64,000 nt of DNA from Thermodesulfobacteriota bacterium (GTDB lineage: Bacteria; Desulfobacterota; Desulfarculia; JACQYL01): the NCBI GenBank assembly GCA_963675595.2, contig CAXXLZ010000002.1, forward strand, positions 960,001-1,024,000. The letters are read 5' to 3'. The notes beneath the pieces are model-generated. The model worked only from the letters and a program-made list of their open reading frames with translations, was not told the DNA's origin and ran no database searches. Below are positions 56,818 through 60,418 of the stretch, piece by piece. Every line of letters begins with the position of its first letter. Positions within the stretch are counted from its first letter, which is position 1. The position numbers were made by a program, and so were the translations under genes.

Positions 56818-57359
56818 CAAGGGCCGAACCTTCCTTGAATCAGTTCCACGGCCACTTCCACGTTCCGTCTCTCCTTTTGTATCATTCCGTCGATCGCAGG
56901 CCGCATCCGTCGGCTCTGCCGGTCCAGATCGGCAATCCACACTTTCAGCTTATCCGTTACCTGATCGGGAGATTCCCGCAGTTCATCAAGGTTCGCGCCG
57001 TGGGACATCCCCGCCTGTTCCATGAACCATCGGACTTTTGGATCATAGACGAGACCGAAGGCCGGCACGTTGGAAAGCGCGCCCAAAACAACGGCATGGA
57101 GCCGCATGGCGATCACACCGTCCATTTGCGCCAGCACGGCCGCCATCTGTTCGGGCGTGTGATCCGTGTGCAGGATACAGTCTCCGTGTTCGGCGGAACT
57201 CGGCCCCATACTCCCAAGGACCCTCTCGCATACGGACCGATCCTCCCGATTTCGGAAGGGAGTGAAAACATAGCGAATCGGACGCGTGCCTCGCAGCCGT
57301 TCCAAACACTTCGCCAAATTCGGCAGGCAATGCTCGATCCCCTTGTATATTTAGCATGC

Positions 57360-57545
57360 CATCTTTCATACTTAATGGAAGACGGCATGACCCGCAAAGT
57401 TGGTCACGGACATGACAGGCCGCCGGACCCCCAGGAGAAATGGACTCCGTTTGGAAGCTTGGGCCGTCATGTCCTTCCTCGAGATAACCCGTACAGTTGC
57501 CCGGCCTTTTAAGGCCGCATCTGCAAGGTTGGGTACGAGAGGAGT
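57360..57545 (+). ncRNA. Putative IS110 bridge RNA
   Basis: Non-coding left end with stem GGACATGAC/GTCATGTCC enclosing TTGGAAGC (complement of the target flank), and a second loop with ACAGTTGC (identical to the element's right end). Boundaries approximate. Confidence 0.75.
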
Positions 57546-57549
57546 TATC

Positions 57550-58518
57550 ATGGGCGAGATCACCTGTTTCGTGGGAATCGATGTCTCCAAGGACCGGCTT
57601 GAAATCGCCGTCGTTCCCGGCGAGGAAGCCTGGTCGATGACCAACCATGAAACCGATTTTGATGCTTTAATCAACCATCTCAAAAATCTTCCTCCCTCCA
57701 TGATCGTCTTGGAGGCTACCGGTGGGCTTGAGACTCCGGTGGCGAGCGCCTTGGCCGGAGCCGGGTTGAATGTGACCGTGGTCAATGCACGACATGTTCG
57801 TAATTTTGCCAAGGCCAAAGGAATACTGGCAAAAACCGATCGCATAGACGCCACAGTCCTGGCCCATTTCGCCCAGGCTGTCCGGCCGCAAATTCGGCCT
57901 TTGAAGGACGACCAGCTGCGAGCGCTGACTGCTCTGGCCGATCGGCGTGGACAAATCATAACCATGTTGACCGCCGAGAAGAACCGTCTTCGAAGCGCTC
58001 ACTCCTCTCTGCACAAGGATATCCAGGCCCATATCTCGTGGCTCCAGAAGCGCCTTGAGGACTTGGACCGGGAACTCCGCAAGGCGATTCGGGCATCTCC
58101 CATTTGGCGGGAAAAAGACGCTCTGTTTCAAAGTGTGCCCGGAGTGGGACACGTTCTCTCCTCGACTCTGCTGACCCGCTTACCCGAACTCGGGGCATTG
58201 AACCGTAAGCAGATCGCCGCCCTGGTGGGAGTCGCTCCCCTGAATCGTGACAGCGGGAAGATGCGAGGGAAACGCTCTATTTGGGGAGGCCGCGCCCAGA
58301 TTCGGGCCGTATTGCACATGGCCGCCTTGTCCGCCACCCGTTCAAACCCGGTAATCAAAGCCTTCTACCAACGGCTTACTAAAGCTGGAAAAGCGCACAA
58401 AGTGGCTATGACTGCCTGTATGCGTAAGCTTCTGACCATACTGAACAGCATGGTCAAAACCAATACTCATTGGCGCGTCCAACAGCCTGAAATCGGTGTC
58501 AAAGACACATTAAGTTGA
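57550..58518 (+). CDS. IS110 DEDD recombinase
   Basis: GIDVSK, LEATGG, KTDRIDA, SVPGVG and RDSGK motifs; GAGGAG RBS before ATG 57550. Confidence 0.95.
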
Positions 58519-60418
58519 CCGGTTTATGTATCACATCGGTTAACCGATGCTGCCGTGGTCTGCTGTGGCGCGGTGCTTGCGCGCGGCAGCCCCACGCGTG
58601 CCGCGCCTAGCAAGCGCCGTGTTACAGCTTCATAGGAATCAGTGACAAACAACTCAGTTGACAAAGAACACAGTTGCTTCCAAGGACGAACGGAAACCGC
58701 GATGGAGCGGATCCCGCCGATAGCCGATATTCTTTCCACCGCGGAACGGCCCCTGTGCGAGGAAACGACCCCCAATGACACCGCGGGATCAGCGGTGGTT
58801 TCGATCAGGGGTTTGCTTACGCCGCAAGCTCGCAGCAAAGATTTTGACGCCTCATCGCGCACCGTAATACGCTTTACTCGATTGGATACGATCCCAACCG
58901 CCCATCGCGCGAAGCGAGATTTCAGCGGCCCCACTCCCACCGCGTAATACATCACGGGCGTCCTTGATATCAGAGCGAGCAGAACCCGACTCATCCAGAA
59001 AGGAACCACGCGAAAGGAAGCGTCCTGCAGGAGTCCGCCTCCACCCAGTATGAATAGATCCGAACGCCTTGCCTGCTTGAAGATTCGATAAAGACCGCGA
59101 AATCTCCGGCCCATGGGAAGGCTTTTTACGCCGTGCATACGGGCCGTCGACTCCGGGTCCCAACTCAGGACCGTGATCTCGTGAATGCCCTCTTCCCTGA
59201 GGCCTTTGATCATGGCACCGAGGATGGCCTCATCTCCGATATTTCCCGCTCCGTACCAACCGGCCACGGTAACACGACGTTGGGGAGTCTCATCTTCTTC
59301 CTGCCGAACCTTTTTCGCTTCTTCCTTATAAGCTTTCCGTGTCTCCGCCAAAACGTTTTCCATGGAAAAATGGCGGCTCAACGCTTTGCTTCCGTTTCGG
59401 CTCAGACGATCTCTCAGCGAGGGGTCGCGCAGCAATCGCTCGATGCATTCCACGTACCGACCCACATCCCCCTGCTGAACCGCGAACCCGTTACGAGCCA
59501 ACTCGACCGCCTCGGTGTTGCCCCCGACGCGTGAAACGACCACCGGGGTCCGGGCCCGCATCACCTCCAGAAGAGCCATGGACATGCCTTCCATCCTCGA
59601 CGTGGAGACGAAAACGTCGGCCTCCTCCAAAAGAGCCGGCACATCTAGCCGAAACCCGAGAAAGCTCACCTTGCCACCGAGCCCCAGACGCTCCGCGCGA
59701 TGTTCCAATAAACCGCGCAGAGAACCGTCCCCCACGACGACCCCGTGAAATCCGATTTTCCGGCCGAGAGCATGGAAAACTTCGAGCAGGGTATCCGGTC
59801 CTTTCACGGCTTCTAAACGTCCCACGCTTATAATGATGGGCACGTCGGGATTTAGGCCCAATTCTCTCCGCAGCGAGGTCCGCTGCCGGCCGAAGGAAGG
59901 AGGGGAATCGGGCAGGCCGTTACGGATGACCGTAATGCGGTGGGAAGGAATGCCGTCGTTTTCGAGTTCTTTCCCGAGATACGACGACAGCACGATGAAC
60001 CTCGCGACGACCCTTCTCGTCGATCTTTCAATCACCGGATAGAAAAGGCGTTTGAGAGGCGTTGCATAGTCGCTGTAGACGGAACCGTGCACCGTATCGA
60101 TCACCGCCGCGTTGAGGCCGCGGGCGGCAAGCCGACCGACAAAGCCGCCGCGAACTCCGTGCGTATGAACGATGGTCGGCGAAGTATCCTTGAGGTGACG
60201 TCTCAGAGTTGGAATCACCCTCAGGTCCGCCGCGTTCCGCATGGGGAAGACCGTCACGGGAATCCCCAATTCCGCAGATTGCCGCGCCAACTCACCATCA
60301 ATGAAACAGATGATTTGTACGTCCACGTCGGGGTAGCGCTCGCGCAAACCTTTGCACAGAGCGAGAAGATGGACCCGTGACCCGCCTGTTTCCCCGCCGC
60401 CGATGACGTGAACGATCT

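Follow-up and report, generated by a model that had tools for sequence, protein, structure and literature searches.

Within the 64,000-nucleotide stretch of DNA analyzed here (the window), an insertion sequence splits a minus-strand host gene for a fusion of a family 4 glycosyltransferase and a polysaccharide pyruvyl-transferase (Table 1). The upstream piece of the host gene matches Glycos_transf_1 and profile positions 1-157 of PS_pyruv_trans, and the downstream piece matches positions 204-280 of the latter profile. The element is a member of the IS110 group and a distant relative of IS621, a cleanly readable but otherwise ordinary new member of the family. It is composed of a non-coding left end of 206 nt (57344-57549), a recombinase gene, and a right end of 158 nt (58519-58676). 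There are no long terminal inverted repeats, and the inverted-repeat scan returned the RNA stem alone.

The recombinase matches two Pfam profiles above their cut-offs, DEDD_Tnp_IS110 (PF01548; E = 2.5e-25) and Transposase_20 (PF02371; E = 1.4e-18). It also matches the IS621 transposase (8wt6_A; E = 4.1e-38, 134.9 bits, 299 residues) and the ISCro4 transposase (PDB 9t56; E = 6.3e-38, 134.3 bits). Residues D11, E55, D97, D100, and S235 align with D13, E62, D104, D107, and S243 of the IS621 chain. The chain numbering equals that of the paper plus two, an offset read by eye, and the corresponding residues there (D11, E60, D102, D105, and S241) are named as catalytic in the description of IS621 (PMC11208158). 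A DEDD (RuvC-like) domain is predicted at the N-terminus of the protein and a Tnp domain with a catalytic serine at its C-terminus.

Table 1. Features of the element and its insertion site, in window coordinates
Feature	Position	Strand	Basis or remark
Whole insertion sequence, including both CT core copies	57342..58678	+	1337 bp; net insertion 1335 bp
Left core dinucleotide CT	57342..57343	+	Copy/flank comparison; CT is the only sequence common to donor and target in orthologous families
Right donor half (RD) TGTATATTT, forming the left terminus	57344..57352	+	CT-TGTA end pattern in orthologues
-10 box TATATT, within RD, candidate circle-junction promoter	57346-51	+	5/6 hexamer match
5' stem-loop of the RNA, predicted	57352..57390	+	MFE fold
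Bridge RNA body with target-binding and donor-binding loops	57393..57547	+	Orthologue-only covariance model
Target-binding loop basal stem, 5' strand GGACATGACAGGCC	57408..57421	+	Inverted repeat with 57461-74
Left target guide (LTG) CCGGACCCC	57423..57431	+	Left-junction match, orthologue slot
Target-binding loop inner hairpin GGAG..CTCC (57434-37/57445-48)	57434..57448	+	MFE fold, orthologue alignment
Right target guide (RTG) GUUUGGA + AG	57449..57457	+	Flank match, orthologue alignment
Target-loop handshake guide CU, putative	57458..57459	+	By homology
Target-binding loop basal stem, 3' strand GGGCCGTCATGTCC	57461..57474	+	Inverted repeat, covariation
Donor-binding loop basal stem ACCC, pairs with GGGT (57531-34)	57487..57490	+	Helix 3
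Left donor guide (LDG) ACAGUUGC	57493..57500	+	Same sense as right end ACAGTTG plus first core base
Donor-binding loop inner hairpin CGGCC UUUUAA GGCCG	57502..57517	+	Helix 4
Right donor guide (RDG) AUCUGCAAG	57519..57527	+	Predicted pairing
Donor-loop handshake guide GU, putative	57528..57529	+	Same letters as IS621 G166/U167
Ribosome-binding site GGAG	57540-43	+	Read by eye
Recombinase gene, 322 aa	57550..58518	+	Pfam profiles, IS621 transposase match
-35 box TTGACA, candidate circle-junction promoter	58658..58663	+	6/6 hexamer match; putative function
Left donor half (LD) ACAGTTG, forming the right terminus	58670..58676	+	Copy/flank comparison
Right core dinucleotide CT	58677..58678	+	Flank comparison, empty allele
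Left target flank (LT) of the window copy TCGATCCC	57334..57341	+	3/8 mismatched to LTG
Right target flank (RT) of the window copy TCCAAGG	58679..58685	+	2/7 mismatched to RTG
Interrupted host gene, glycosyltransferase family 4 and polysaccharide pyruvyl-transferase fusion	56817..60422	-	Split at 57341/58679

Copies and ends of the element

The source genome contains seven copies of the element at 99-100% identity. Their comparison places the left boundary at 57342-44, and the flanks diverge outside ...CCC-CT-TGTATATT on the left and ACAGTTG-CT-T.. on the right. Two copies vary at these positions, L003 with one extra C at the left and L005 with TTC for TCC at the right. Because this variation lies on the flank side, the variable bases belong to the target and not to the element.

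Orthologue ends were located with the pattern CT-TGTA paired with the right-end pattern ACAGTYRCT. Both motifs are present in 49 of 80 related loci, and the right ends of the orthologues read ACAGTYG-CT. Copies of CT flank the seven elements of this genome as well as the 49 orthologous loci. The element appears to be intact and recently mobile, with mobility supported indirectly by the identical copies and by a polymorphic empty site described below.

A predicted two-loop RNA encoded by the left end

A covariance model derived from 23 orthologues, with the window sequence left out, matches 57393-57547 along the full length of the model (positions 1-160 of 160; 84.7 bits, E = 2.2e-24), and this is its sole match in the 64 kb. 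The minimum free energy (MFE) fold of 57345-57549 has an energy of -80.7 kcal/mol (z = -3.99), and none of 200 shuffles was equally stable. A search of Rfam release 15 with both strands of 57200-58800 gave no match at E up to 1.

The structure is also maintained across the orthologues. Over four helices (25 pairs) in 24 sequences, 81.9% of cells are paired compared with 61.3% in shuffles, and the stem covariation score is 0.511 compared with 0.172, neither value being reached in 500 shuffles; sliding the partners lowers the score to 0.04-0.18. The contributions of the helices differ. Compensatory changes occur in 11 of the 13 pairs of helix 1 (target-loop basal stem) and in 3 of the 5 pairs of helix 4 (donor-loop inner hairpin). 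Helix 2, the homologue of the target-loop inner hairpin, is 83.3% paired in the orthologues; at GGAG/CTCC the window sequence is shifted by one column in the alignment (A1), and pairing there was read by eye and from the MFE fold. Helix 3, the donor-loop basal stem, is 100% paired but hardly varies and is thus uninformative. Together with the recombinase downstream, these features suggest that the left non-coding end encodes a bridge RNA of the IS621 type.

Target and donor guides

In sense, the LTG corresponds to the LT top strand and the first core base, and it would thus pair with the bottom strand. It matches the left junctions of L002, L004, L006, and L007 at 9 of 9 positions, and its position is homologous to the LTG slot of the orthologues. 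The RTG matches at 7-8 of 8 positions in the copies of this genome and ends in AG, which is near-invariant (columns 69-70 of A1, 23 of 24 rows as aligned). Its strand follows the rule described for bridge RNAs, in which the 3' side of a loop is the reverse complement of the core plus the right DNA half (PMC11208160).

On the donor side, the LDG matches 58670-77 at 8 of 8 positions and occupies a slot where the orthologues have conserved ACAGTYGC. The RDG is predicted to pair through GCAAG with CT-TGT (including one G:T) and through AU with AT, leaving two bases unpaired; GCAAG is conserved in the orthologues. The RDG described for IS621 (A157-G165) likewise pairs nine bases on seven, with two unpaired (PMC11208158). 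The handshake guides, a concept also taken from the IS621 description (PMC11208158), would follow each right guide. C57458 is complementary to G58676, the last base of the right end, and G57528 to the last C of the cognate left target, whereas the second handshake base would not pair in either loop. In the orthologues, 23 of 24 rows have C directly behind AG; the right ends invariably terminate in G and therefore offer no covariation here.

Guides and flanks vary together among the orthologues. In slots defined by the alignment, 219 of 312 guide-flank comparisons match across the 24 orthologues. Permuted flanks gave a mean of 118.6 (s.d. 8.7, maximum 156), and none of 5000 permutations reached 219, although these counts overstate independence because the set includes related sub-families. 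The donor-side matches are conserved rather than covarying, as the ends of the element hardly vary among orthologues.

These results bear on an earlier note made from the window, which proposed an IS110-family element with a bispecific bridge RNA in its left end. That proposal is upheld by the recombinase match, the covariation of stems and of guides with flanks, and the covariance model. The two matches from which it started are also present as given: TTGGAAGC at 57451-58 is the exact reverse complement of GCTTCCAA at 58676-83, and ACAGTTGC occurs at both 57493-500 and 58670-77. When the left end was shuffled 2000 times, 95 shuffles gave an 8-nt match to the right-junction window in the same sense, 95 an 8-nt match in reverse complement, and 7 both. 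Either match taken singly is thus weak evidence, and their joint occurrence by chance is moderately unlikely.

In structural context, ACAGTTGC was correctly taken as the left donor guide, given its 8/8 match and conserved slot, and the hairpin placed beside it, CGGCC/GGCCG (57502-06/57513-17), is a real covarying helix (A1 columns 127-131 with 163-167). The other hairpin, CGGA..TCCG, is not confirmed. CCGGA is guide sequence, and the inner stem is instead GGAG/CTCC in both the MFE fold and the orthologue alignment. TTGGAAGC does lie on the 3' strand of the target-binding loop, but it was misread as core plus right flank; it is made up of UUGGA, the complement of TCCAA in the right target, AG, the complement of the CT core, and the handshake base C. 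Finally, CAGGCCGC had been expected as the left target guide, whereas the guide found is CCGGACCCC, and CAGGCC belongs to the 5' strand of the target-loop basal stem.

Target sites and the empty allele

The cognate target, CCGGACCC-CT-TCCAAAC, is situated just after a hairpin in a REP-like repeat, where four copies of the element are inserted. These copies (L002, L004, L006, and L007) have no mismatches in the 8 LT positions and 1-2 in the 7 RT positions. Thus, the comparison of guides with the flanks of other copies that the earlier note had proposed as a check gives agreement within 1-2 mismatches for 4 of 7 copies. The remaining three (L001, L003, and L005) are mismatched at 5-6 of 15 positions, so that site choice is not predictable from the guides alone in every case. 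Significantly better folding than in shuffles was found for four of the seven left flanks (z = -2.9 to -5.6), and no significant hairpin was found by this comparison in the left flanks of the three off-target copies. The window copy is an off-target insertion at TCGATCCC-CT-TCCAAGG, with mismatches at 5 of 15 non-core positions, in keeping with the relaxed or off-target event suspected earlier.

An empty allele of the window site is found in contigs of two other public runs (X4 and X6), which join 57341 to 58678 with a single T between. The empty site is 8 nt (CCCTTTCC) compared with 1343 nt when occupied, giving the net insertion of 1335 (1337 - 2). The allele derives from a diverged relative, whose flank pieces show 8 to 26 differences each, and was seen on contigs of low depth (2-2.7); it reads CCCTTTCC where CCCCTTCC was predicted. 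Unoccupied copies of the REP-like repeat have spacers of 8 or 9 nt, either CCCC[T/A]TCC or CCCTTTCCC. A CC core, under which the flanks of the empty site would be separated by just 2 nt, is excluded by the 8-nt empty allele and by these 8-9-nt spacers.

The genome contains no unoccupied site with 0-1 mismatch to the 17-mer, and of six sites with two mismatches, five carry CA at the core and the sixth carries CT. All repeat copies that are within two mismatches of the guides and have a CT core are occupied (four copies), whereas five copies with a perfect left-target match but a CA core are all empty. Two solo right-end fragments, L008 and L009, lie directly after type-2 repeat hairpins. It is conceivable, though on balance we doubt it, that the repeats and the element shape each other, with the core dinucleotide acting as a selected natural immunity switch and L008 and L009 arising by RNA-guided recombination with internal pseudo-sites.

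Alternative readings of the core and the left end

The assignment of the core depends on the orthologues, as the copies of this genome cannot by themselves discriminate between CT and TT. With the same element and RNA, the crossover dinucleotide could in principle be TT (57343-44/58678-79), since the donor ACAGTTG-CTT-GTAT and the cognate target CCGGACCC-CTT-CC have CTT in common and a shift of one base would be hidden; the X4/X6 allele moreover has TT where the window predicts CT. In orthologous multi-copy families, however, donor and target have just CT in common, and the base after it is T in the donor and A, C, or G in the target. One such family reads GCCGTGCCC-CT-TGTATG...CACAGTTG-CT-ACCGGT, and the uninterrupted repeat GCCGTGCCCCTACCGGT is visible beside it. 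That the RTG ends in a near-invariant AG, complementary to CT, also argues against TT, which we consider very unlikely. The earlier note had arrived at a GC core, with an element extending from about 57334 (or 57331) to 58677, TTGGAAGC as core plus right flank, and CAGGCCGC as the left target guide. GC does precede TCGAT at 57332-33 and ends ACAGTTGC at 58676-77, and TTGGAAGC is the reverse complement of the segment that begins there. However, the other six copies are unrelated over the first 8-10 bases of such an element, homology starting only at 57339 and the block 57339-41 being target-side. Furthermore, all 49 two-ended orthologous loci and the copies of this genome end in ACAGTYG-CT and begin with CT-TGTA, the empty allele keeps 8 nt between GAT and AAGG, contrary to the GC prediction, and CAGGCC sits in a covarying stem. 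A GC core thus has almost no probability left, and the boundaries revert to those in Table 1. The core dinucleotide is very probably CT, as in IS621.

The left end might alternatively be a structured leader or promoter of the recombinase mRNA, with the guide matches reflecting the site preference of the protein and the conservation of the termini. Such a reading would accommodate donor-side matches that are conserved rather than covarying, and the 3' strand of the donor-loop stem does adjoin the ribosome-binding site. It does not account for target guides that covary with very different flanks at fixed structural slots (219/312 compared with 118.6), for stem covariation that is independent of coding, or for the opposite-strand rule, described as experimentally established for IS621 (PMC11208160), which both guides obey. 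The recombinase is also homologous to two structurally characterized bridge recombinases, and a leader without guide function seems very improbable. We put the probability that 57342-58678 is a mobile IS110-group element with a DEDD/serine recombinase and a two-loop bridge RNA, its guides and CT core as mapped, at about 90%.

On this assignment, the element adds a natural bridge-RNA system in which every guide can be read from sequence, including a 9-nt LTG and a 9-nt RTG. Its CT core and defined cognate repeat, together with three insertions at natural off-target sites and five natural core-variant sites that stayed empty, make it convenient for studying which mismatches are tolerated and how strictly the core is required outside E. 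coli. For annotation of the genome, it accounts for the splitting of a polysaccharide-synthesis gene and reveals a mobile element present in seven copies. It leaves knowledge of how IS110 elements work unchanged.

Candidate junction promoter and proposed mechanism

Joining of the right and left ends would place TTGACA and TATATT 17 nt apart. Of 29 distinct orthologues, 20 have a -35 box with at least 4/6 matches at this same fixed offset. On the plus strand of the integrated left end, a simple sigma-70 scan gave no promoter, leaving the junction promoter as the only candidate. No circle junction was seen among contig joints, and none of the public runs listed as containing the element is registered as RNA.

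By homology to IS621, we infer the base-pairing geometry, the handshake, the junction promoter, the chemistry, and the production of the RNA. The LTG CCGGACCCC would pair with the bottom strand and the RTG GUUUGGA-AG with the top strand, together specifying CCGGACCC-CT-TCCAAAC, while ACAGUUGC and AUCUGCAAG would recognize the joined ends of the element itself, ACAGTTG-CT-TGTATAT. One handshake base after each right guide, being complementary to the other DNA partner, could then pair across, and exchange at the CT core would leave CT on both sides of the inserted element. Excision would produce the circle junction ACAGTTG-CT-TGTATATT, as expected from a CT core, in place of the ACAGTTGCTCGAT that the GC core had suggested. 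This junction would bring TTGACA and TATATT together into a promoter that could drive both RNA and recombinase.

Comparison with known systems

The closest parallel is IS621 of Escherichia coli (PDB 8wt6), which has been characterized experimentally, whereas the window element is known from its sequence. Both insert into repeats of the repetitive extragenic palindrome type. The recombinases belong to the same fold family, with the DEDD and serine residues aligned, although the match is distant (134.9 bits over 299 residues). In both, the RNA is predicted or known to lie in the left end upstream of the gene, the core is CT, and each of two internal loops combines a 5' guide of the same sense with a 3' guide that is antisense. 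The LDG is likewise 8 nt, starting with A and ending with C, and the RDG is likewise 9 nt, A-U-x-U-G-C-A-A-G followed by G-U, in line with the IS621 letters A157, U158, U159, U160, G161, C162, G165, G166, and U167 in the cited description (PMC11208158). A right-end -35 box that meets a left-end -10 box only on the circle is also described for IS621.

There are differences. The IS621 target is given as ATCAGGC-CT-AC (PMC11208160), compared with CCGGACCC-CT-TCCAAAC here, and the left end is 206 nt rather than the 191 nt reported for IS621 (PMC11208160). Beyond the core, the RTG has 7 nt, whereas the four-base guide of IS621 (G77-G80) has 2 nt (PMC11208158). Opposite the second core base, the LTG has C rather than the U of IS621, leaving one pair fewer than in the IS621 description.

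The ISCro4 transposase (PDB 9t56), a second solved IS110-group recombinase, matches about equally well; the likeness here is by protein alone. ISPpu10 of Pseudomonas putida, also of the IS110 group, is described as inserting into one REP-type intergenic repeat (bioRxiv 10.64898/2026.03.19.712850; PMC11208160). By that description it resembles the present element in targeting many copies of one conserved intergenic repeat beside a hairpin. The IS1111 group has the same recombinase family and RNA-guided logic, but its RNA is described as lying in the right end, with longer sub-terminal inverted repeats (PMC11208160), whereas here the RNA would lie in the longer left end.

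An intact, recently mobile element of the IS110 group

The insertion sequence in the window (copy L001) belongs to the IS110 group, is intact and recently mobile, carries a bridge RNA of the IS621 type and represents a further example of an already-known type of system. Its recombinase carries the domains DEDD_Tnp_IS110 and Transposase_20 and matches the solved structures of the IS621 and ISCro4 transposases (E 4.1e-38 and 6.3e-38, respectively). Residues D11, E55, D97, D100 and S235 align with the composite active site of IS621, as its residues are named in the part of PMC11208158 consulted. 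The same genome (G000) contains seven full copies (L001-L007) with 99-100% identity and two short right-end fragments (L008 and L009). In the window, the element splits a minus-strand gene for a fusion of a family-4 glycosyltransferase and a polysaccharide pyruvyl transferase; in a search for an intact orthologue, 0 of 40 other genomes matched its 173-residue C-terminal piece.

Inspection by eye of the right non-coding end (58519-58640) reveals a 14-nt perfect palindrome, ATCGGTTAACCGAT, followed by a long GC-rich imperfect inverted repeat 3' of the recombinase stop codon; neither was reported by a repeat search with seed 9. The genome also has at least three further repeated sequences with no relation to the element, in at least seven, at least five and at least four identical copies, which are probably other mobile elements.

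Features of the element, its bridge RNA and the targets of its copies
Feature	Position	Sequence	Observation
Element	57342-58678	donor ACAGTTG-CT-TGTATAT	CT core each side
Recombinase ORF	57550-58518		322 aa
Left target guide (LTG)	57423-31	CCGGACCCC	equals left junction of L002, L004, L006, L007 at 9/9 positions
Right target guide (RTG)	57449-57	GUUUGGA-AG	complementary to CT-TCCAAAC
Left donor guide (LDG)	57493-500	ACAGUUGC	equals right end plus first core base
Right donor guide (RDG)	57519-27	AUCUGCAAG	could pair with CT-TGTAT, by analogy to the nine-on-seven pattern of IS621
Match to covariance model R1	57393-57547 (+)		84.7 bits, E 2.2e-24; sole match in window
Putative -35 box	58658-63	TTGACA
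Putative -10 box	57346-51	TATATT
Palindrome	about 58536-49	ATCGGTTAACCGAT	14 nt, by eye
L002 target			1/15 non-core mismatches
L004, L006, L007 targets			2/15 each
L001 (window), L003 targets			5/15 each
L005 target	G000:C2:255969-257313 (copy)		6/15
L008 fragment	G000:C2:1729087-1729169		83 nt, 92% identity
L009 fragment	G000:C2:734818-734895		52-78 nt, 85-92% identity

Boundaries and core dinucleotide

The seven aligned copies have the block CCCCTTGTAT...ACAGTTGCTTCC in common. Its outer bases differ with the flank, as L003 has one extra C at the left and L005 reads TTC versus TCC at the right, and they are therefore part of the targets. Relatives were gathered via the recombinase and the best 80 of 128 were kept (39-59% identity). 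Several orthologous multi-copy families have a left junction ...CT-TGTAT and a right junction ACAGTYG-CT..., with donor and target differing in the base that follows CT, and in one family an uninterrupted target repeat, GCCGTGCCCCTACCGGT, is seen next to occupied ones. Both end motifs are present at 49 of these best 80 loci. At the level of sequence comparison, the orthologues are the decisive evidence on boundaries and core.

An empty allele agrees with this placement. Contigs of two public sequencing runs (X4 and X6), which derive from a diverged relative (organism B) in a different study (P2), join 57341 to 58678 with a single T between and without the element. The allele reads CCCTTTCC, the prediction having been CCCCTTCC. 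It has 8 nt between GAT and AAGG versus 1343 nt at the occupied site, so that the net insertion is 1335 bp, equal to the span of 1337 bp less a single 2-bp core. Since the site is empty in the diverged relative, the window insertion is strain-specific. The host gene of that relative is uninterrupted at the 57341/58678 site, and the same element occurs there, with a few differences, at other sites, some of which are common to this genome.

Two other cores were considered. The donor and the cognate target of the window element share CTT, which would also accommodate a TT core; for this reason the choice was made on the orthologues, which favour CT and leave TT as a minor rival. A CC core (element CCTTG...GCTT) is ruled out by the 8-9-nt spacers of the empty repeats together with the 8-nt empty allele; the host reading frame is uninformative here because the CC and 8-nt readings both preserve it. 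CT is thus the core on each side. The GC core of the earlier note gives way to CT on the copies, the orthologues and the empty allele, and its left boundary moves to 57342 on the seven-copy alignment, the orthologues and the empty allele.

Guides and targets

The four guides in the table follow from applying the bridge RNA guide rule, as stated in the part of PMC11208160 consulted, to the window element. The RDG letters are those of IS621 at all but one of the positions named in the consulted part of PMC11208158. At C57458 and G57528, handshake pairing with the final base of the other partner DNA is predicted. Across 24 orthologues, guides and flanks compared at slots fixed by the alignment agree in 219 of 312 cases, and none of 5000 flank permutations reaches this number (mean 118.6, s.d. 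8.7, maximum 156), a count that overstates independence because the set includes related sub-families.

The guides had been proposed previously from two 8-nt matches, TTGGAAGC at 57451-58 with its reverse complement GCTTCCAA at 58676-83, and ACAGTTGC at both 57493-500 and 58670-77; re-reading confirmed all of these positions. When shuffled left ends were compared with the 29-nt right-junction window, a same-sense match arose in 95/2000, a reverse-complement match in 95/2000 and both in 7/2000, and the pair taken alone is suggestive, not decisive. ACAGTTGC was correctly assigned and is the LDG. Of the eight bases of TTGGAAGC, five belong to the RTG, two (AG) are the complement of the core and one is a handshake base. 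The earlier note therefore recognized the system and two of its four guides; along with the core and left boundary, its LTG was wrong and is replaced by the one in the table.

The cognate target of the guides is CCGGACCC-CT-TCCAAAC, and the reconstructed targets of the seven copies depart from it to differing degrees (table). The genome has no free site within one mismatch of the 17-mer, the specified target including the core. Six unoccupied sites have two mismatches; the core is CA in five of them, all repeat copies, and CT in the sixth. L002, L004, L006 and L007 all sit inside one REP-like repeat; at that position, unoccupied copies of the repeat have a spacer of 8 or 9 nt, CCCC[T/A]TCC or CCCTTTCCC. 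A left-flank hairpin is significant in these four repeat-borne copies only (z = -1.85 in L005, +0.28 in L003 and -0.27 in L001); as it falls short of significance in three of the seven flanks, we claim no structural requirement.

Structure of the bridge RNA

With a folding energy of -80.7 kcal/mol, the left end is more stable than shuffled versions of itself (z = -3.99). Aligning 24 sequences of the homologous segment yields a consensus in which 11 of the 12 predicted pairs show compensatory changes. A fuller four-helix structure, written by hand after the IS621 architecture in the consulted part of PMC11208158, is 81.9% paired versus 61.3% in shuffles (0/500), with a covariation score of 0.511 versus 0.172 for shuffles and 0.04-0.18 for slid partners. 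The covariance model R1 was built from 23 orthologues with the window left out; the target-loop inner hairpin was omitted because the RNA alignment (A2) places it in inconsistent registers. Besides its match in the window, R1 matches the left ends of the further orthologous loci searched outside its training set. Rfam contains no family matching the left-end RNA.

Circle junction and a possible promoter

The expected circle junction is ACAGTTG-CT-TGTATATT, versus the ACAGTTGCTCGAT predicted previously. This joint is absent among the contigs of runs X1, X3, X4 and X6, which is uninformative either way as contigs drop rare forms. On the circle, TTGACA would lie 17 nt from TATATT, an arrangement in keeping with the junction promoter that the consulted part of PMC11208160 describes for IS110 elements. 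Of 29 distinct orthologues, 20 have a -35 box (at least 4/6 matches) at this offset. A sigma-70-like scan of 57250-58750 returned no plus-strand site in the integrated left end and two sites in total, which lie within the recombinase gene on the minus strand. Of the listed public runs that contain the element, none is recorded as RNA. From the sequence, we infer that the bridge RNA would be transcribed.

Repeat families, fragments and a tandem

Two REP-like families touch on the element. Type 1 is large (for example, G000:C1 minus near 1171072 and G000:C2 plus near 4110), and a copy consists of a hairpin, GGGGAAACC..GGTTTCCCC, GGA, an 8-9-nt spacer, (C/A)AAACTT and a second hairpin, GGGTTGC..GCAACC. 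Five type-1 copies match the LTG perfectly but have CA, not CT, at the core, and all five are unoccupied. Type 2 comprises a hairpin, CCGNACCC-CT-TYCAAAG and ..GTTGGACAGGCCTCACCGCC, thus combining a CT core with a partial guide match. Among the full copies, L005 occupies a site whose right half is of this type. The solo right-end fragments L008 and L009 each lie directly 3' of a type-2 hairpin (GGAGGACTTTCGGGAAAGTCCTCC-like) and end in ACAGTTG-CT-CCCAAAGCACGTTGGAC; they could have arisen by deletion or be what is left of an older relative.

Among the relatives, locus L051 (CAWHDO010000040.1) contains an orthologous element twice in tandem, perhaps as a head-to-tail dimer or through an effect of the assembly; locus L087 (CAWHDO010000059.1) matches L051 at 1194-2456 and 2466-3736.
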